The position numbers and the translations under genes were made by a program. Below the pieces are notes generated by a model. The model searched no databases, was not told where the DNA came from, and worked only from the letters and a program-made list of their open reading frames with translations. Source: a virus (lineage: Duplodnaviria; Heunggongvirae; Uroviricota; Caudoviricetes). From it: DNA of 13,313 bases. The stretch lies in IMG/VR virus record IMGVR_UViG_2703718794_000005, one strand, 5' to 3'. This document shows, piece by piece, positions 1,479 to 10,700 of this stretch; position 1 is the stretch's first letter; every line of letters starts with the position of its first letter.

Positions 1479-1530
1479 TTTTTTTCGTGTTTTTTCAGTA
1501 TGCGCATACTGGATAAGTGCACAGATACAA

Positions 1531-1570
1531 CGTGAAACAATGTGCAACAACGTGACACAATCACGAACAA
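1531..1570 (+). repeat. Four tandem 10-bp-phased repeats cGTGAaACAA / tGTGCAACAA / cGTGACACAA / tCACGAACAA
   Basis: Read directly; exact 10-bp periodicity; just downstream of int stop, preceded by perfect 14-bp palindrome AGTATGCGCATACT (1497-1510). Similar phased GTGAC array at the other end of the island (11301-11340). Confidence 0.5.
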
Positions 1571-1666
1571 GAGGCCAAAAAGAATACAGATTTATAAGTT
1601 ACTGATTTTTAATGCTTAGCTGGTTTTTTATACATTAGTGAATTACGCGTTAAAGCGTGCGAAAAA

Positions 1667-1698
1667 AGGCATAAAACAAGATTTTATGCCTTTGTATT
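1667..1698. terminator. Intrinsic terminator candidate (10-bp stem aggcataaaa/ttttatgcct, 5-nt loop, T-rich tail; A-run upstream so possibly bidirectional)
   Basis: Inverted repeat 1667-1676 / 1682-1691 followed by ttgtatt; lies between int and alpA. Confidence 0.55.
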
Positions 1699-1852
1699 GA
1701 TATGAATTTAAATGATTTTATCCTGATTATTCCTCTTTCTGTAAACCATGCGACACCAACATTTGCCAACTCTGAATCATCCTGACACAATCAGACACAT
1801 CCCAACGCAATAGAACACGAAATAACTCTTTAAGAAACGAAAGGGGGCAATA

Positions 1853-2041
1853 GTGTTAAGCACTGATCGGTTTATACGTGAAAAAGAATGCGAAAAGCTA
1901 ACAGGCCTTAGCCGCTCATGCCGCTACCGCCTGGAAAAGGCCGGACAATTCCCATCACGTCGTAAACTTGGTGGGCGTTCTGTTGGCTGGTCTTTATCTG
2001 AGGTTTTGGCCTGGAAGGATAGCTGCAAGGCAGTTCACTAA
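1853..2041 (+). CDS. alpA: AlpA/Vis-family small HTH regulator (prophage regulatory protein / excision-directionality candidate)
   Basis: 62-aa ORF with GTG start 9 nt after aaaggggg SD; motif RKLGGRSVGWSLSEVLAW typical of AlpA-type MerR-like HTH; positioned directly downstream of int as in P4-like elements. Confidence 0.8.
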   Translation: MLSTDRFIREKECEKLTGLSRSCRYRLEKAGQFPSRRKLGGRSVGWSLSEVLAWKDSCKAVH

Positions 2042-2182: not shown

Positions 2183-2216
2183 AAAAAAAGCGGCCCCGAT
2201 ATGGAGCCGCCTTTCT
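2183..2216 (-). terminator. Candidate terminator for leftward operon (minus-strand stem GCGGC/GCCGC followed by 7 U)
   Basis: Plus strand aaaaaaagcggccccgatatggagccgcc; on minus strand gives hairpin plus TTTTTTT; located in the convergent gap between alpA and the leftward genes. Loop is long (11 nt), so weak. Confidence 0.35.
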
Positions 2217-2284: not shown

Positions 2285-2488
2285 TCAGGCTGGTGGGCAA
2301 TTACCTTGCTTGTTGGGGCCGTATTGTGCTGCCATTTTCATCCGTTCAGAACGTGAATATTTTTTTAGAAACTCATCAAGGACAAAAGCGCATGGAGCGA
2401 ATCTTTCTGATTCATGCTCGAGCGCCATATTTTCGTGCTCTCTGTTCGTTTTTTGCGATGGTGTATTGGTTGATTCTTTATTGGTCAT
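2285..2488 (-). CDS. Hypothetical small protein (67 aa), paralog of 2946-3173
   Basis: ORF with charged, non-repetitive composition; C-terminal block RFAPCAFVLDEFLKKYSRS resembles EKFALEDFVDKYPRR of the 75-aa ORF; start codon preceded by conserved leader element R1a. Confidence 0.5.
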   Translation of the reverse strand: MTNKESTNTPSQKTNREHENMALEHESERFAPCAFVLDEFLKKYSRSERMKMAAQYGPNKQGNCPPA

Positions 2489-2496
2489 TGTGTGTA

Positions 2497-2540
2497 CCTG
2501 TAAAGCAATGCGCCGGAGTTCCTCACGCCACGGCGCTGAT
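2497..2540 (-). promoter_or_regulatory. Conserved 44-nt intercistronic hairpin element R1a
   Basis: cctgtaaagcaatgcgccggagttcctcacgccacggcgctgat; 41/44 identical to R1b (3182-3225) in my by-eye alignment; contains inverted repeat gcgccg..cggcgc; lies between a minus-strand stop codon and the next minus-strand start. Confidence 0.5.
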
Positions 2541-2545
2541 GTTTT

Positions 2546-2650
2546 TTATTCTTTGGGTTCAATACCGCGTTGCTGTAATTCTTTTCGGATTATTCGTTTT
2601 ATCCAAGCAGCTAAAGAGTCATCACCGTCTTGTTGTTGTGCTTTTTCCAT
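2546..2650 (-). CDS. Possible 34-aa ORF (MEKAQQQDGDDSLAAWIKRIIRKELQQRGIEPKE), truncated paralog of the C-terminus of the 3231-3419 protein
   Basis: ATG (revcomp of 2648-2650) preceded by gggaaaag; C-terminus resembles ..AALKREVEYRQRRKAKESE of the 62-aa ORF; not in supplied ORF track (below size cut-off). Confidence 0.25.
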   Translation of the reverse strand: MEKAQQQDGDDSLAAWIKRIIRKELQQRGIEPKE

Positions 2651-2718
2651 CTTTTCCCGTAAGTCAGGATCTAAACGGAACTGGAAAGGAGGATTACCAC
2701 GCCTTTCATTCTTGTGTG

Positions 2719-2768
2719 TTGACACGTCAATTACACCCCATATAATGTGTTTATGTGTATATACACAT
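2719..2768 (+). promoter_or_regulatory. Consensus sigma70 promoter (TTGACA 2719-2724, 16-bp spacer, TATAAT 2741-2746) with 16-bp perfect palindrome ATGTGTATATACACAT (2753-2768) over the predicted +1
   Basis: Read directly from sequence; both hexamers match consensus 6/6; palindrome immediately downstream is operator-like. Confidence 0.6.
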
Positions 2769-2793
2769 TACACACAACTAGCACAAAAAACAA

Positions 2794-2926
2794 CGCCCCG
2801 CAGTGATGGGAACACATACGGGGCGTCTAACCAAACCATTAATTGAGGTAACGATTATGGTTATAAAAGAGCATAGCTTACTCTTTATACACACACAAAC
2901 GCCCCGGAAACGGAATAATCCGTTTC
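2794..2926 (+). ncRNA. Candidate structured leader / small RNA (R2a) transcribed from the 2719-2746 promoter
   Basis: Hairpin cgccccg(2794-2800)..cggggcg(2819-2825), then tctaaccaa, SD+ATGGTT (2857), tatacacacacaaac; all shared with R2b (3543-3650); second hairpin gaaacgga/tccgtttc at 2907-2926. The long plus-strand ORF through here has junk composition, so the transcript is probably non-coding or encodes only a short peptide. Confidence 0.3.
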
Positions 2927-2945
2927 ATAGTTCGGTTTTGTGCAC

Positions 2946-3173
2946 TCATCCTGGCGGTCGGTTTTTGCCGGATTTAAGCCGCCGTGGGTATTTATCGACA
3001 AAATCTTCAAGGGCAAATTTTTCTGGTGGCACTAAGCGCGGCGCTGGTGGTGGTATTTTTGTTCTGGTTAGTTCTTCCTCAAGTCTGGCGCAGGCTTCTG
3101 ACTGCCTTTGCCGGATGATTTCATCATCTTGCGTTTGCGTGTCTTGTATTGGTGATAGTGTGTTGTTGGTCAT
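2946..3173 (-). CDS. Hypothetical small protein (75 aa), paralog of 2285-2488
   Basis: ORF start MTNN.. mirrors MTNK.. of the paralog; both preceded by the R1 element; shared C-terminal motif; protein-like composition. Confidence 0.55.
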   Translation of the reverse strand: MTNNTLSPIQDTQTQDDEIIRQRQSEACARLEEELTRTKIPPPAPRLVPPEKFALEDFVDKYPRRLKSGKNRPPG

Positions 3174-3181
3174 GATACTGC

Positions 3182-3225
3182 CCTGTAAAGCAATGCGCCG
3201 TAGTACCTCACACCACGGCGCTGAT
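3182..3225 (-). promoter_or_regulatory. Conserved 44-nt intercistronic hairpin element R1b
   Basis: cctgtaaagcaatgcgccgtagtacctcacaccacggcgctgat; on the minus-strand RNA forms a ~9-bp stem GCGCCGUGG/CUACGGCGC with GAGG in the loop; sits between stop of 3231-3419 and start of 2946-3173. Confidence 0.5.
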
Positions 3226-3230
3226 AGTGA

Positions 3231-3419
3231 TTATTCTGATTCTTTGGCCTTGCGACGCTGGCGGTATTCAACTTCCCGCTTTAATGCAGCTGTAACAAAC
3301 TGCCCTGTACTTTCGCCGGGCATTTTTACCGCCTCAACATTGTTCATAACTTCATGTGGAACCCTTGCCGCAACTGTTTGTGATTTTGCGTTTACTGCTT
3401 TTGTCGCCATGTTGAGCAC
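3231..3419 (-). CDS. Small DNA-binding regulator candidate (62 aa; possible ribbon-helix-helix type repressor)
   Basis: GTG start 4 nt after gagggg SD (alternative ATG 9 nt downstream); segment QTVAARVPHEVMNNVEAVK..GQFVTAALKREVE fits a beta-strand/helix/helix pattern; gene diverges from an operator array. Confidence 0.55.
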   Translation of the reverse strand: MLNMATKAVNAKSQTVAARVPHEVMNNVEAVKMPGESTGQFVTAALKREVEYRQRRKAKESE

Positions 3420-3460
3420 CCCTCATAAAAAACAAATGCAGTATGCAGGAAAAAAAATAA

Positions 3461-3537
3461 GTGTTCAACACTTGACGTGTTTAACACCTCGATTTAAATT
3501 GGTGTTCAACACCTTATTTAGGCAAGGTGTTGAAACG
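3461..3537. promoter_or_regulatory. Operator array: GTGTTcAACAC (3461-3471), GTGTTtAACAC (3477-3487), GTGTTcAACAC (3502-3512), GTGTTgAAAC (3527-3536), with divergent promoters
   Basis: Three perfect 5+1+5 palindromes plus a half-site variant, read directly; -35-like TTGACG (3472-3477) between O1 and O2 and -10-like TAAATT (3495-3500) for rightward transcription; leftward TTGAAC/CATACT candidate overlapping O1. Confidence 0.6.
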
Positions 3538-3542
3538 ACGAA

Positions 3543-3650
3543 ACCCCGCACTGTAGGAGCAGTAACGGGGCTTCTAACCAACAACGTAAACGAGGAGCCG
3601 TTATGGTTGCCGTAAATCATATACCACACCTTGTACACACACAAACTGCC
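3543..3650 (+). promoter_or_regulatory. Conserved structured leader R2b of the rightward operon
   Basis: Hairpin ccccg(3544-3548)..cgggg(3566-3570) with AGGAG in loop, tctaaccaa, SD gaggag + ATGGTT at 3603, tgtacacacacaaac; patchwise identical to R2a. Confidence 0.4.
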
Positions 3651-3675
3651 TTTGTGTGGCGTTTTCTGGCCCTGA

Positions 3676-4005
3676 GTGCCGGAGAATCTCAAATCATCCA
3701 CGTCACCGCCTGGACGGAACGCGAAGCGCGTAACCGTTGCCCGTCCGGTTGTGTTGCTGTATTTGCCGCCCGTATTCGTCAGGAGGTGCGCCATTATTAA
3801 TCTGTCACTTACTGACCTTAACCGCATTCAGTTTCGTGAGAAATTCACAGGGCAGCTACTGGTCAATGTGGATAAAGGTCGCGTGGTGTGTAATTACCAC
3901 TTACCAGATGAAGCAATTGTCGCCACAAGGGAATCATTACAGGAAATCACAAAACGTGCCGGAATGATTAACACGAATATTCAGGGGATGCTTTATGCAC
4001 AATAA
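3676..4005 (+). CDS. Hypothetical protein; start uncertain
   Basis: C-terminal two thirds (..LTDLNRIQFREKFTGQLLVNVDKGRVVCNYHLPDEAIVATRESLQEITKRAGM..) looks protein-like; N-terminal part from GTG 3676 is Pro/Arg-rich and overlaps alternative ORF 3603-3800 (65 aa, with SD and conserved ATGGTT start). A strong AGGAGG at 3780-3785 precedes an in-frame ATT (3793). Only one of the overlapping frames is likely translated. Confidence 0.4.
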   Translation: MPENLKSSTSPPGRNAKRVTVARPVVLLYLPPVFVRRCAIINLSLTDLNRIQFREKFTGQLLVNVDKGRVVCNYHLPDEAIVATRESLQEITKRAGMINTNIQGMLYAQ

Positions 4006-7891: not shown

Positions 7892-8946
7892 TGGCAGGCA
7901 AAGCAACGGCACTTAACACTAACCAGCTTTTCGCGTACCTGAATCGCGGGGATATTGCGGAATTTAAATTCAGTCCGCTGTTTACCACGCTGTTTTTCCC
8001 GAACGTGGCGACATTCAACACCCAAAACATCATGCTGGACACCCTGGACATTGAAGAGGTTACGATGTCGGCGTTTTGTTCGCCTATGGTGGGTAGTCAG
8101 GTCCAGCGCGATAAAGGGTACGAAACCAGCACGATTAAACCTGGATACATGAAGCCGAAGCACGAAATCGATCCAACGAAAACCATCATGCGCATGGCCG
8201 GAGAAGATCCGGCACAGCTTAACGACCCTACCTATCGCCGTATGCGCCTGATTACTGGCAATATGCGCCGCCAGGTAAACGCCATAAAAGCGCGCGTGGA
8301 ATGGCTGGCGGTAAATGCGGTAACGACCGGAAAAAACATCATTGAGGGCGAAGGCATAGAGCGCTATGAAATCGACTGGAAGATACCGGAAAAAAACATC
8401 ATAGAGCAGGCCAAAGGCCGTAAATGGTCAGAGCAGGACAAAGAAACTCACGATCCAATCTATGATATTGAGCTTTATGCGGATCAGGGCAATTGCCCCG
8501 CAAACGTCATGATTATGGGCGCTGAGGTATGGCGCACGTTACGCAGCTTTAAAAAATTCCGCGAACTGTACGATCTTTCCCGTGGTTCAGAATCCGCCGC
8601 AGAACTGGCCTGCAAAAACCTGGGCGAAGTGGTGAGCTTTAAAGGCTATCTGGGCGATATTGCCCTTATCGTCTATTCCGGCAAATACACTGACAGCGAC
8701 GGCACCGAAAAATATTTCCTTGAGCCTGATTTGCTGGTCCTGGGCAACACCAACAATAAAGGGCTGGTGGCCTATGGTGCGATTATGGAACAGGAAGCGG
8801 TAAGAACGGGCGCAACGCAAAACATGTACTACCCGAAAAACTGGATTGAGGACGGCGATCCGGCGATTGAGTACGTGCAGACACACAGCGCACCGCAGCC
8901 GGTACCGGCAGATATTCGCAAATTTGTTACCGTCAAAATTGGTTAA
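7891..8946 (+). CDS. Major capsid protein, lambda gpE family
   Basis: 351 aa; blocks FKFSPLF..LFF, KPGYMKPKHE, DPTYRRMRLI, HDPIYDIELYA, RSFKKF, RGSESAAE, LGEVVSFKGYLGDIALIVYSGKY, FLEPDLLVLGNT, YPKNWIEDGDPA, SAP..AD..KFVTV align with lambda E protein as I recall it. Confidence 0.9.
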   Translation: MAGKATALNTNQLFAYLNRGDIAEFKFSPLFTTLFFPNVATFNTQNIMLDTLDIEEVTMSAFCSPMVGSQVQRDKGYETSTIKPGYMKPKHEIDPTKTIMRMAGEDPAQLNDPTYRRMRLITGNMRRQVNAIKARVEWLAVNAVTTGKNIIEGEGIERYEIDWKIPEKNIIEQAKGRKWSEQDKETHDPIYDIELYADQGNCPANVMIMGAEVWRTLRSFKKFRELYDLSRGSESAAELACKNLGEVVSFKGYLGDIALIVYSGKYTDSDGTEKYFLEPDLLVLGNTNNKGLVAYGAIMEQEAVRTGATQNMYYPKNWIEDGDPAIEYVQTHSAPQPVPADIRKFVTVKIG

Positions 8947-9830: not shown

Positions 9831-9924
9831 GTGGTGGTTTTGTTGTTCGCTCTATCTCTATGAATAAAAAGGGAAAGATAAAAACAATACACCAACCTGA
9901 AACATTACTTAAGTGGGGATATTG

Positions 9925-10467
9925 ATGAAATCGCACCTGATGAACAAAAAAAACATGGCGCAAAGCTGCCGTGTAAGTGCGACAGCGTTCGACAAGTGGC
10001 GAGTGACTCCCGTTGAACGTAAAGGACGCGAGGCTTTTTACGATGTTGCCAGCGTGATAGACAATCGGGTAAGCAATGCAATTAACCAGGTTACAAACGA
10101 CAAAGGCGAGATTGATGATGATGAACTCTTACGAGTCAGGATCAGATTACTGACCGCCCAGGCGGAGGCGCAGGAACTTAAAAACGAGCGCGATCGCGGT
10201 GACGTAATTGATACAGAGTTTTGCATGTACGCGCTTTCAAAACTGGCGAGCCAGATTTCTTCAATCATGGACAGCCTACCGCTTACGATGCAAAGGAGCT
10301 TCCCACAGATTACCCCCGCCATGCTGGATGGGCTTAAAAGGGAAGTGGTTAAAGCCTGTAATGCCAGTGCCAGAGTTGCCGACAACCTTCCGCAGATACT
10401 GGCTGATTACTTGAAAGAAACTACCGGAAACGTACCGGAAAAGTTGCTACAGAAGAAACGTGAGTAA
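9925..10467 (+). CDS. Small terminase subunit, lambda Nu1-like (TerS; could act as a packaging-redirecting TerS homolog)
   Basis: Central block LTAQAEAQELKNERDRGDVIDTEFCMYALSKLASQISSIMDSLPLTMQRSFPQ..LKREVVKACN aligns with lambda Nu1 (LTRAQADAQELKNARDSAEVVETAFCTFVLSRIAGEIASILDGLPLSVQRRFPE..LKRDIIKAMN). ATG 9925 has SD gtgggga; ORF track starts at GTG 9913; ATG 9940 also possible. Confidence 0.85.
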   Translation: MKSHLMNKKNMAQSCRVSATAFDKWRVTPVERKGREAFYDVASVIDNRVSNAINQVTNDKGEIDDDELLRVRIRLLTAQAEAQELKNERDRGDVIDTEFCMYALSKLASQISSIMDSLPLTMQRSFPQITPAMLDGLKREVVKACNASARVADNLPQILADYLKETTGNVPEKLLQKKRE

Positions 10468-10495
10468 CCGCAGCACAATTATTGAACAAAAATGA

Positions 10496-10557
10496 GAAAG
10501 GATCTGATAATGGCATTTTCTGGCTAAAATGCCTCGTGTCAGATCCTTTCTTTTTTT
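10496..10557 (+). terminator. Strong intrinsic terminator after terS (12-bp outer stem gaaaggatctga/tcagatcctttc enclosing an 8-bp inner hairpin, then T7)
   Basis: Read directly; on the minus strand the same inverted repeat corresponds in position to the lambda cosB-region inverted repeat (GAAAGGAAACGACAG..CTGTCGTTTCCTTTC). Confidence 0.7.
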
Positions 10558-10700
10558 AATGTTTTCATTGTTAAACAGTCTGTTACAGAGAAGAAGAACG
10601 GATCTGACTTTTGCCGGAAAATTTTCATAAACAGATAAAAACTGCGAGGTCGCCGCCCCGTAACGGGCCATAATTCCAGGAAGGACCCGACGACACCAGA
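10558..10700 (-). other. cos site 2, lambda-type, inverted relative to cos1: cosN GGGCGGCGACCT on minus strand (10647-10658), cosQ-like GGGTCCTTCCTGG, extended cosB-like region
   Basis: Reverse complement reads ..GGGTCCTTCCTGGAATTATGGCCCGTTACGGGGCGGCGACCTCGCAGTTTTTATCTGTTTATGAAAATTTTCCGG..GTTCTTCTTC..AAAGAAAGGA.., matching remembered lambda left end; 31-bp stretch 10637-10667 is the exact reverse complement of 9771-9801. Confidence 0.75.

Follow-up and report, generated by a model that had tools for sequence, protein, structure and literature searches.

A candidate immunity and early-control region in an Escherichia coli phage satellite, with exchangeable putative repressor cassettes and a predicted antisense RNA over the icd start

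Genomic context and organization of the region

The DNA analyzed here, referred to as the window, is a 13,313-nt stretch from a Caudoviricetes virus (IMG/VR record IMGVR_UViG_2703718794_000005). The region under study lies between its alpA gene (1853–2041, plus strand) and its icd-like gene (3603–3800, plus strand). It contains two leftward (minus-strand) units, A and B, each composed of a gene for a ribbon-helix-helix (RHH) protein, a conserved hairpin element (R1), and a small gene. A second conserved element (R2) is found at the start of icd and again between the two units, and long rightward open reading frames (ORFs) run antisense across both. We propose that this is probably the immunity and early-control zone of an E. 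coli satellite of the phage-inducible chromosomal island (PICI) type, which follows the ground plan of phage P4 but uses different parts. The proposal is based on the anatomy of the sequence, its conservation across the family, strand asymmetry, covariation, the statistics of open frames, and the co-variation of operators with repressors.

The 2.5 kb around the region is a 100% match to E. coli 2013C-3181, where it belongs to an ~11-kb island between roxA and phoQ. Island genes annotated by PGAP include a tyrosine integrase, an AlpA-type regulator, an Icd-like protein, DUF4222, a RepA-family helicase, SSB, a major capsid protein, a decoration protein, and terS. The integrase and alpA genes are at the left end and are followed by co-oriented replication genes, and the island is small and occupies a chromosomal att site; this is the layout of Gram-negative PICIs. 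By its gene set, the window is an E. coli PICI-type phage satellite comparable to PICIs and capsid-forming PICIs. The alpA gene encodes a regulator of the AlpA/Vis family (Pfam Phage_AlpA, 5e-18; also annotated by PGAP) and would be the upstream entry point for rightward transcription. AlpA is an activator required in PICI induction (PMC6092414), and the dependence of induction and transfer on helper phages is known from the literature on EcCICFT073 and EcCIEDL933. The icd-like gene encodes 65 aa (NF033153, 5e-18; phrog_1743 and phrog_6196) and is a homologue of P4 kil and of the C terminus of P4 eta.

Eighty related loci were retrieved from IMG/VR through the Icd protein. A scan of genome contigs gave 3 loci only, which limits the depth of the covariation sample, and a search of a phage database turned up no related phage region. 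An Rfam scan of the whole window at E ≤ 1 returned chance-level matches only, none of them within the region under study.

Exchangeable putative repressor cassettes and operator-like repeats

The RHH gene of unit A (RHH-A; 2546–2725, minus strand, 59 aa, GTG start) encodes a putative Arc-like repressor (phrog_228, Arc-like repressor, 2e-6; NF041551, 6.6e-4). Its counterpart in unit B (RHH-B; 3231–3410, minus strand) encodes a putative repressor of the YlcI/YnfO family (NF041551, 2.1e-16; phrog_949, 8e-22; PGAP name). RHH-B scores above the cutoff of NF041551 (YlcI_YnfO_N) and RHH-A below it. The preliminary description of the region had likened a 34-aa ORF to the C terminus of a 62-aa protein. 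The 34-aa ORF is replaced here by the 59-aa RHH-A gene; no BLASTP alignment was obtained between RHH-A and RHH-B, but both match NF041551. The RefSeq/PGAP coding sequence for RHH-A (2546–2743) would begin at ATA (2741–2743), and homologues begin at (M/V/L)ST, corresponding to the GTG at 2725. This GTG lies between the –35 and –10 hexamers of the unit A promoter, directly behind the –35.

The protein encoded upstream of R1 is always of the RHH type. Two subfamilies are seen, a YlcI/YnfO-like one ending in RRQRRKAKESE and an Arc-like one ending in RGIEPKG/E, and together they comprise about 16 sequence types. In a joint profile the proteins align in a strand-helix-helix pattern, and no Pfam match was found for the RHH proteins. 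Amino acid conservation calculated over six frames is highest in the RHH sense frame (0.60), followed by its shadow frame (0.57), with the others at ≤0.49.

The protein encoded downstream of R1 is small and carries the motif ERFAPCAF-L-x-FLK or a distant FALEDFV version of it. Small gene A (2285–2488, minus strand, 67 aa; phrog_21027, 2e-12) belongs to the ERFAPCAF-L-xFLK family, which comprises 36 clusters, all from E. coli/Shigella; the ratio of nonsynonymous to synonymous polymorphism (pN/pS) is lowest in its sense frame (0.49, against 0.57 in the plus frame). Small gene B (2946–3173, minus strand, 75 aa) is a distant paralogue of the type seen in the proximal unit of tandem arrays. The preliminary description had called the 67-aa and 75-aa proteins paralogs, and support for this relationship is weak (BLASTP E = 0.012; profile-profile E = 4.4e-5, probability 69%, 20 columns). 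The leftward operon of unit A is closed by a strong intrinsic terminator with a stem and U7 (2184–2216, minus strand; –21.7 kcal/mol, z = –3.6, 0/200 shuffles as good).

No small gene was seen that lacked an RHH gene upstream, and RHH genes without a small gene occur. The same small gene is found behind different RHH genes in Sakai Sp7 and CFT073, and the reverse pairing was also found. Any RHH type can pair with any small-gene type, and the variable cassette is thus bounded by R1 and R2.

Both units face rightward promoters. A sigma-70 promoter, TTGACA-16-TATAAT (PR-A; 2719–2746, plus strand), matches the consensus at 12/12 positions in a consensus scan, as the preliminary description had noted, and the same promoter is placed to drive a full icd gene in the single-unit relatives L041, L049, L078, and L081. 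Sequence reading and an inverted-repeat scan place an operator-like nested palindrome just behind it (2744–2778, core ATGTGTATATACACAT at 2753–2768). In unit B, the same consensus scan identified TTGACG-17-TAAATT (PR-B; 3472–3500, plus strand) as the putative promoter of the icd/replication operon. A leftward promoter-like site recognized by eye (PL-B; –35 TTGAAC at 3468–3463, 17 nt, –10 CATACT at 3445–3440, minus strand) may serve the repressor operon, and its –10 position is kept, as TATACT, in other YlcI-type cassettes. Three operator-like repeats, GTGTT(C/T)AACAC (3461–3471, 3477–3487, and 3502–3512), flank PR-B and lie inside it; the repeats assigned to RHH-B are written as GTGTTCAACAC.

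Every cassette type has a 10- to 12-nt repeat of its own, which recurs at three fixed places in the interval from the RHH start to the R2 hairpin: beside the leftward –10, between the rightward –35 and –10, and just past the rightward –10. Examples are GTGTTCAACA in unit B here and GGTGGCTGAC, GGTGTGTTTC, GGTGCGATTC, GGTGTAAGAC, GTGTCCGACA, ATGGTAATTACCAT, and AAGTGGTCACC. The repeats co-vary with the RHH type, which is a signature of immunity repressors. From these features, each unit looks like an immunity cassette in which a leftward RHH/R1/small-gene operon faces a rightward promoter under cassette-specific repeats.

Some of the same features are found in type II toxin-antitoxin or addiction modules. 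In such a module, the toxin role would fall to the small basic protein, and R1 would adjust the ratio of the two products. The gene order is antitoxin-like, with the RHH gene first and the small protein second, palindromic operators are typical of autoregulated toxin-antitoxin loci, and the RHH gene occurs without the small gene but not the reverse. We nevertheless regard this explanation as unlikely. The small proteins have no match among the defence and toxin-antitoxin models of PADLOC, Pfam, and NCBIfam, and their predicted structure is just two low-confidence helices (predicted local distance difference test score of 65), too poor for a fold search. Moreover, the operators overlap the –35 and –10 of the icd/replication promoter, a hallmark of an immunity repressor. 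The explanation is also compatible with, rather than exclusive of, an immunity function for the cassettes.

An antisense RNA candidate over the icd start

The two R2 copies share a GC hairpin and TCTAACCAA (2809–2834 and 3556–3581, 81% identity), followed by GAGG, TTATGGTT, CATA, and TACACACACAAAC blocks. These common blocks were confirmed by repeat search and alignment after the preliminary description had presented R2 as a conserved plus-strand leader. The hairpin, with compensatory changes on a plain alignment (CG8/AU8 and GC11/CG6), and the conservation at the nucleotide level stand as well, but the structure belongs to the minus strand. When the same interval was folded on both strands, the minus strand was more stable in all 30 distinct leaders, by a mean of 10.2 kcal/mol, and all imperfections of the plus-strand fold are A·C oppositions that become G-U pairs on the minus strand.

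The minus-strand R2a (2781–2863) is a predicted antisense RNA opposite the translation-initiation region of ORF2, one of the long rightward frames (–33.5 kcal/mol, z = –5.4). It is made up of a first stem-loop (SL1) whose loop contains an anti-Shine-Dalgarno sequence, an AGA linker, and a GC hairpin with a UUGUUUUUUG tail, and its icd-leader allele is marked by GAGGTAACGATTATGG. R2b (3529–3609, minus strand) is the corresponding prediction opposite the icd Shine-Dalgarno sequence and AUG (–30.6 kcal/mol, z = –3.9). Covariance-model scores are 86.6 bits for R2a and 89.8 bits for R2b, both of which are in the seed alignment of the model.

Across 35 distinct sequences, 99.2% of the cells are paired in the minus-strand fold, 79 of them as G-U, and none of 500 shuffles was as good. 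Double changes occur at two pairs (AU19/CG15 and GC24/CG11), and six pairs vary on one side only. RNAalifold recovered the same helices from an independent MAFFT alignment. The covariance model gave minus-strand matches only, one per icd leader and one per tandem junction, including the non-seed loci L084 and L086; it had no match in P4 or in a P4-type relative, and no Rfam family matches R2.

The arms of SL1 follow the start region of icd. The 5' arm (AACCA or AGCCA) complements the start-codon region, the 3' arm (UGGUU) complements the invariant AACCA of TCTAACCA, and the loop bears the anti-Shine-Dalgarno CUCCU. The inner stem varies by icd-leader allele and is always paired. The order of SL1, AGA linker, GC-rich second stem-loop (SL2), and U-rich tail is the same in all types, with UUGAUUUUUG, UUUGCUUUUUU, and UUGUUUUUUG as examples of the tail region. 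The motifs listed for the plus strand in the preliminary description thus find a place in the minus-strand model: the GC hairpin becomes the terminator, TCTAACCAA the 3' arm of SL1 and the linker, the Shine-Dalgarno sequence with ATGGTT the loop and 5' arm of SL1, and TACACACACAAAC the –35 of a promoter-like site.

These promoter-like sites lie on the minus strand ahead of both copies. For R2a the hexamers are TTGTGT (–35, 2898–2893) and TATGCT (–10, 2875–2870), and for R2b, where the site falls inside icd codons 5–14, they are TTGTGT (3644–3639) and TATGAT (3621–3616), each with a 17-nt spacer. Hexamers and spacing are conserved across alleles; TTGTGT-17-TATGAT/TATGCT is kept in 18/18 leaders of the window type with 12 different spacers. 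The site is retained in R2a although the icd reading frame is replaced after codon 15. R2 is most likely a gene-like unit for a cis-antisense RNA of ~75–80 nt over the icd Shine-Dalgarno sequence and AUG, with transcription and function predicted from these conserved features.

A terminator-like hairpin inside icd (3638–3658) was considered and rejected, as it is no more stable than shuffles (z = 0.04). Conservation there is explained by the Icd codons and the proposed –35.

The R1 hairpin element

R1a (2497–2540) and R1b (3182–3225) differ at 3 of 44 positions, so that a recount bears out the 41/44 identity first read by eye, and both lie inside a repeat that reaches 75 nt at 80% identity. 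The neighbouring genes are barely alignable. A 56-nt R1 query found 2712 sites in 1664 of 5426 complete E. coli genomes. In the 80 IMG/VR loci, the orientation of R1 is constant and its distance upstream of icd is 341–544 nt, with a second copy 975–1216 nt upstream in seven loci. The number of genomes that carry R1, together with the fixed orientation and distance, rules out a chance origin.

Both copies were described as conserved structured RNA, and conservation is indeed at the nucleotide and not the protein level; the hairpin is on the minus strand and would be part of the repressor-operon mRNA. The stem-loop of R1a spans 2510–2536 and that of R1b 3195–3221 (11 pairs, including G-U). Each is followed by the Shine-Dalgarno-like AUUGCUUUACAGG, with the small-gene AUG behind it in R1a, and the copies score 84 bits (R1a, minus strand only) and 86 bits (R1b) with an R1 covariance model that has both in its seed alignment. 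Against shuffles, R1b has z = –3.4 on the minus strand versus –1.1 on the plus strand. Paired cells amount to 87.9% on the minus strand (31 G-U cells) versus 74.7% on the plus strand, and in 17/18 variants the minus-strand form of the 27-nt hairpin is the more stable one, by a mean of 3.5 kcal/mol.

R1 occupies a constant 57-nt gap from the RHH stop codon to the small-gene AUG. The sequence downstream of the hairpin, AUUGCU(U/A)U(A/G)CAGG, is probably the Shine-Dalgarno sequence of the small gene. R1b passes a terminator scan with 12 pairs and the tail AUUGCUUUAC, and the R1a stem is weaker. The tail has 5 U in 8–9 nt and also bears the small-gene Shine-Dalgarno sequence. R1 is present together with the small gene, and RHH cassettes without both also exist. 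We tentatively read R1 as a leaky terminator or a translation-control hairpin that would set small-gene expression. Separately, loci L028–L032 (around 2443–2505) carry R1 but have lost the small gene behind it (ATTGCTATGTAAATACTGG...), and R1 can thus outlast its downstream gene for some time.

Folding and covariation across homologous islands, the check proposed in the preliminary description, thus gave covariation for R2, on the minus strand rather than the plus strand, and a double change at one pair only for R1. The few compensatory changes in R1 would be in line with R1 and R2 being "linker" DNA without RNA function at the borders of an exchangeable cassette, homogenized by satellite recombination. 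In keeping with this, the borders of the variable block of RHH gene and operators coincide exactly with R1 and R2, the same small gene stands behind different RHH types and the reverse, and the family is young and narrow. Linker DNA would nonetheless leave unexplained the substitutions in both elements, which are nearly all transitions that keep G-U pairs on one strand. It would also leave unexplained the compensatory double changes in R2, the allele-specific, structure-preserving stems of SL1, the U-rich tail, and the joint loss of R1 and the small gene. On this evidence, we consider it an improbable explanation.

The model first suggested for the locus was that the plus-strand R2 acts as a leader and that PR-A produces a small plus-strand RNA (about 2753–2926) that functions like the P4 CI RNA, with R1 as its partner. 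The consensus promoter at 2719–2746 is real, the plus strand of R2 folds better than shuffles (z = –3.5 and –2.2), and relatives carry C4 and isrK RNAs beside icd. The best P4 match of the R1a minus strand is exactly at seqC (score 32, 0/400 shuffles); this P4 hairpin, which resembles R1a, reads GCGTGAG(G)AACTCCGGCG and is followed by TTGCT..ACAGG and AUG. We nonetheless judge the model very unlikely. No match to C4 (RF01695), isrK (RF01394), or c4-a1b1 (RF03163) was found anywhere in the window at E ≤ 1, with P4 as a control at 74.9 bits. Pattern and duplex scans of the window for a partner complementary to the R1 loop or to TCTAACCAA gave only the R1 plus strand itself and the two R2 copies. 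The minus-strand fold of R2, rich in G-U pairs, is better in every variant. The 8-bp hairpin at 2907–2926 is a poor terminator, and the ATG at 2857, taken to belong to a short leader, opens a 252-codon ORF that runs to 3615. Likeness to seqC is seen only in R1a-type variants and is not found by the R1 covariance model.

Two further roles for R1 were rejected. As a relative of P4 seqC or seqA it remains a lead only, because the covariance model has no P4 match and the alignment is significant for R1a-type variants only. The plus-strand R1 loop as an anti-Shine-Dalgarno RNA against icd was discarded because the loops do not co-vary with the highly variable icd Shine-Dalgarno alleles.

Open frames antisense to the cassettes

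Two long ORFs on the plus strand cover the units. ORF1 (2094–2846, 250 codons) is an eta-like open frame antisense to the whole of unit A and has no Pfam or NCBIfam match. Its TGA (2844–2846) overlaps a GAGG Shine-Dalgarno sequence located 11 nt ahead of the ATG at 2857, with which ORF2 (2857–3615, 252 codons) begins. ORF2 starts with an icd-type Shine-Dalgarno sequence and ATG and 15 icd-like codons, runs antisense across unit B, and stops 12 nt beyond the icd ATG.

In 63 non-redundant units, the longest plus-strand stretch that crosses R1 without a stop codon falls in the same frame every time and measures 615–1389 nt. From alpA to icd, one plus frame contains 0–2 stops over 750–1400 nt, compared to 9–44 in the other plus frames and 3–32 in the minus frames. 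The longest open span beats 100/100 dinucleotide shuffles in 41/44 loci. Further, the plus frame is stop-free in 38/38 RHH variants and 33/34 small-gene variants, for which synonymous resampling expects 34% and 66%. The frame starts right behind alpA and ends in one of four ways: at the TAA of TCTAACC (–26), at the TAG of CTAGGAG (–9), 12 nt past the icd ATG, or by in-frame fusion to icd, the last in about 40% of loci.

The openness of the frame suggests that the long plus-strand ORFs might encode functional Eta/Bro-like proteins, with the minus-strand "genes" as by-products. The frame is open far beyond chance, the fusion to icd is frequent, PGAP and a preprint describe an "Icd-like protein with long N-terminal extension" (10.1101/2023.04.06.535777), and P4 eta belongs to a Pfam family, Phage_ASH. 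We consider this reading highly improbable. ORF1, ORF2, and the 428-aa ORF of CFT073 have no Pfam or NCBIfam match outside the Icd domain, and none of the three matches Phage_ASH (PF10554), which detects P4 Eta at 4.5e-23. Plus-strand translations from different cassette types bear no relation to one another, whereas the minus-strand proteins belong to RHH families and are best conserved in their own frame. R1-to-icd distances fall into all three classes modulo 3. In the plus frame, the ratio of nonsynonymous to synonymous substitutions is intermediate (0.57 vs 0.49) because third codon positions are shared with the leftward genes, which does not account for the openness.

Since the plus-strand translations lack family matches and share no relationship across cassette types, the selected property seems to be openness and not protein sequence. 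The preliminary description had set protein-level conservation of the long plus-strand ORF against RNA control. The frame proves open beyond chance, but its amino acids are unconserved across cassette types, and the finding adds a P4-eta-like layer rather than refuting RNA control. By analogy, we infer that the window ORFs would provide a translated bypass like that of P4 eta.

Some parts of the frame show other signals. Its first ~15 codons after alpA (M-x-x-x-Y-x-PE-x-GRGFVRP; 2094–2180 in the window) are conserved between islands. In CFT073 (L003:1843–2550), the ORF continues via a stretch that looks Bro-N-like by eye and is not confirmed by Pfam, and in L086 (1159–1656) a separate 165-aa gene, antirepressor-like by eye, precedes the plus-strand ORF. 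The open frame may descend from a gene of the Bro network. PGAP calls the antisense open frame a "host cell division inhibitor Icd-like protein" in O157:H7 genomes. Transposon insertions in the Icd-like "extension" would also disrupt the leftward RHH and small genes, and transposon hits there may be hits in the repressor genes instead.

Tandem arrangement of two cassettes

Two-unit loci share one junction, composed of the R2a unit, an icd-type start fused to ORF2, the hairpin at 2907–2926, the 75-aa small gene, and R1b. The hairpin lies between about codon 17 of ORF2 and the end of small gene B and is a weak terminator candidate, with z about –2 for either strand and without a good U-tract. 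Which RHH cassettes flank the junction varies from locus to locus, and CFT073, Sakai, and EDL933 carry single units. The junction is present in 6 IMG/VR loci and in 110/5426 genomes at 82–100% identity; this spread, together with the differing flanking cassettes, indicates that the tandem architecture is no recent accident and is old enough to have diverged and swapped cassettes. The view of the region as a tandemly duplicated regulatory unit therefore holds in that two units stand in tandem, but they are heterotypic repressor/operator cassettes (Arc-like in A, YlcI-like in B) and not simple duplicates. As read from the sequence, the tandem layout is two repressor-controlled promoters in series, PR-A and then PR-B, each with a predicted antisense RNA. 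Transcripts from PR-A would need translation of ORF2, antisense to operon B, to reach icd.

Proposed working model

In the model we favor, the RHH protein probably binds the cassette-specific repeats over the rightward and leftward promoters, which would silence the icd/replication operon and autoregulate the RHH gene. The R2 RNA would start from the promoter within the first icd codons and end at the GC hairpin and U-tail. Its 5' stem-loop would expose the anti-Shine-Dalgarno sequence. Because the RNA is fully complementary to the ribosome-binding site and start codon of icd, it would keep Icd from being translated on basal transcripts from the rightward promoter. By the precedent of P1 and P4, blocked icd translation would then let these transcripts terminate. 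Translation of the eta-like frame would, presumably by preventing Rho-dependent termination as the P4 precedent and the avoidance of stop codons suggest, take transcripts that start at the helper-induced alpA promoter across the antisense-oriented repressor genes to icd and the replication genes. The R1 hairpin on the minus strand, tied to the small gene, would set the ratio of repressor to small protein. In the tandem arrangement, the Arc-like unit A and the YlcI-like unit B, joined by the R2a/icd-start/ORF2 junction, would form a double lock.

A more specific form of the model can be put forward with reservation. It posits three layers of PICI immunity: exchangeable RHH/operator cassettes placed antisense in an eta-like ORF, a cis-antisense small RNA (sRNA) that gates icd, and a helper-induced, translation-protected read-through from the alpA promoter by which both are overridden. 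The double lock of tandem islands would come from R2a and the second repressor, which could also act in trans as immunity against competing satellites with the other icd-leader allele.

Several points weigh against the proposed model. The RHH assignment through solved structures is weak; the best match of the family profile in the PDB is P22 Arc (E = 0.027), followed by a CopG-family protein (E = 0.11). The U-tail of R2b in the window is poor (UUUCGUCGUUUC), and the tail of R1 is just moderately U-rich, with one common variant that opens mid-stem. The –35 of the antisense promoter is weak (3/6) and the site falls under the consensus-scan threshold; in the CFT073-type allele the –35 is absent and only TGgTATGAT is present. 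Protein constraint could explain part of the hexamer conservation because the hexamers coincide with Icd codons (His6, His-Thr-Gln). The family is confined to Escherichia/Shigella and recombines, so its sequences are non-independent, and double changes are seen at two R2 pairs and a single R1 pair. Amino acid selection in the plus frame is inseparable from that on the leftward genes, with which it shares third codon positions, and the frame could code for a real protein instead of being just a translated spacer. Finally, a search of papers on sRNAs of enterohemorrhagic E. coli and their supplements for transcripts of the locus found none.

If the model is correct, the region is a candidate for the missing negative control of Gram-negative islands and occurs in roughly 30% of complete E. 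coli genomes. The existence of a PICI repressor was called unclear in 2018 (PMC6092414). The candidates offered here are allele-specific RHH repressors with their operators, an antisense RNA over the start of a toxic cell-division-inhibitor gene, and a translated bypass resembling P4 eta. We found no paper on the function of YlcI/YnfO in satellites. The locus is also an unusually clear case of an ORF kept open antisense to real genes, with 0–2 stops over about 1 kb and across unrelated cassettes, which bears on annotation and on the interpretation of genetic screens.

Comparison with known systems

The closest likeness in ground plan is to P4. In P4, the eta ORF (8168–8812, 197–199 codons) starts at the end of vis and spans the immunity region, and its last 65 codons are kil, which is Icd-like. 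The window has the same order and orientation, with an AlpA-family gene, a long ORF beginning immediately downstream of that gene and finishing as or next to a 65-aa Icd/Kil-like gene, an internal promoter inside the long ORF, and replication genes; the long ORF comes in two parts here, ORF1 and ORF2, each of which stops at the following start region. Predicted RNA-level control centered on the kil/icd ribosome-binding site is a further likeness. Translation of P4 eta reportedly serves as an escape from immunity by blocking termination of transcripts from the upstream late promoter, a finding attributed to Forti et al. in 1999. A later study (PMC10111431) likewise states that translating eta prevents termination and describes eta as coupled to the alpA homologue.

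The two systems differ in their parts. A C4/CI RNA and isrK (Rfam, E ≤ 1) and seqA were not found in the window, where the candidate RNA is instead cis-encoded on the opposite strand. Among P4-type target boxes, only the R1a minus strand matches seqC as given above, other R1 variants match none, and R1 is opposite the icd strand. Immunity specificity in the window would reside in RHH repressor genes that are antisense inside the eta-like ORF. By these comparisons, the window is not a member of the C4/CI class. The earlier suggestion of RNA-based control reminiscent of P4 CI is therefore retained in part: RNA-level control of icd is likely and the layout is P4-like, but no RNA of the C4/CI type is present at the threshold used.

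Control of the C4 type does occur among the relatives. In L085 from Escherichia albertii (Icd 65% identical), an isrK leader, a C4 RNA (77.7 bits), a seqC hairpin, a Shine-Dalgarno sequence, and icd (2247–2500) replace the RHH cassette and R2. A second icd paralogue is found a few hundred bases downstream of the first in L066, L041, L044, L048, L049, L051, L054, L065, and L082. In L066, the two paralogues are separated by a C4 RNA (2717–2804; Rfam, 71.5 bits) that has target boxes of its own (GTTTAGCAG), and one island can thus combine R2-type and C4-type controls.

The combination of RHH proteins and antisense RNA recalls the immI region of P22, in which the RHH repressors Mnt and Arc act at palindromic operators and the sar antisense RNA covers the ribosome-binding site of ant. 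The sar RNA is ~70 nt long; its start lies within the 5' end of the gene it controls, and its 3' end is set by an intrinsic terminator. Small RHH repressors and a short antisense RNA from inside the controlled gene are both predicted for the window. The target in the window is an Icd/Kil-like gene with the replication operon, in contrast to the antirepressor of P22, and the window has in addition the eta-like read-through ORF and exchangeable cassettes; no sequence or Rfam relationship between the systems was found.

The target gene recalls immI of P1 and P7, in which icd is the first translated gene, an antisense RNA targets its ribosome-binding site, and icd translation is coupled to downstream expression. 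The shared element is an icd-family target gene, as NF033153 matches the window protein; a tblastn search for P1 Icd gave no match at 1e-3. The C4 RNA of P1 and P7 is of a trans type, processed from the same strand upstream of icd, whereas the candidate RNA in the window is encoded opposite icd. Lambdoid cI-OR-cro regions resemble the cassettes in having a variable repressor/operator block between conserved flanks, many immunity types, and divergent promoters covered by operators. They differ in the repressor fold (helix-turn-helix rather than RHH), in the placement of the cassette inside an antisense ORF here, and in the possibility here of two heterotypic cassettes in tandem.

In position, the region corresponds to the "Bro zone" of PICIs described by Mageeney et al. 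(2023, PMC10111431), with the integration zone (int, alpA) on one side and the replication zone on the other. That study reports eta-like genes and C4/isrK matches in some PICIs, and CFT073 and L086 have Bro-like N-terminal or neighbouring genes. Leftward RHH/operator cassettes, R1, and an icd-antisense RNA are not in its description; the word "antisense" appears 0 times in it and "repressor" 4 times, none for the cassette genes (PMC10111431). Taken by sequence, the ground plan is that of P4, the combination of RHH proteins and antisense RNA resembles P22 immI, and the target gene resembles that of P1 immI. New relative to these systems are the RHH/operator cassettes, R1, and the icd-antisense RNA candidate in a PICI immunity zone, with the functional steps predicted.

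Other features of the island

A few observations concern the island outside the region. The small terminase gene (9913–10467 in the window) is annotated as frameshifted in the identical RefSeq locus, and the island may therefore be defective in its own packaging. The Rfam int-alpA RNA motif (RF02996, 55 bits) is found between int and alpA in the relative L078 (1116–1182). The corresponding spacer of the window (1479–1852) has no RF02996 match at E ≤ 1, just a chance-level match to BSnc120 at 1629–1707. Near the right end of the island, the interval 10489–10644 is AT-rich (33% GC) and contains a long inverted repeat with several weak, unrelated Rfam matches, among them tsr24 (E = 0.0014, under the gathering score). 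This interval could be a terminator or att-proximal structure, or an sRNA.

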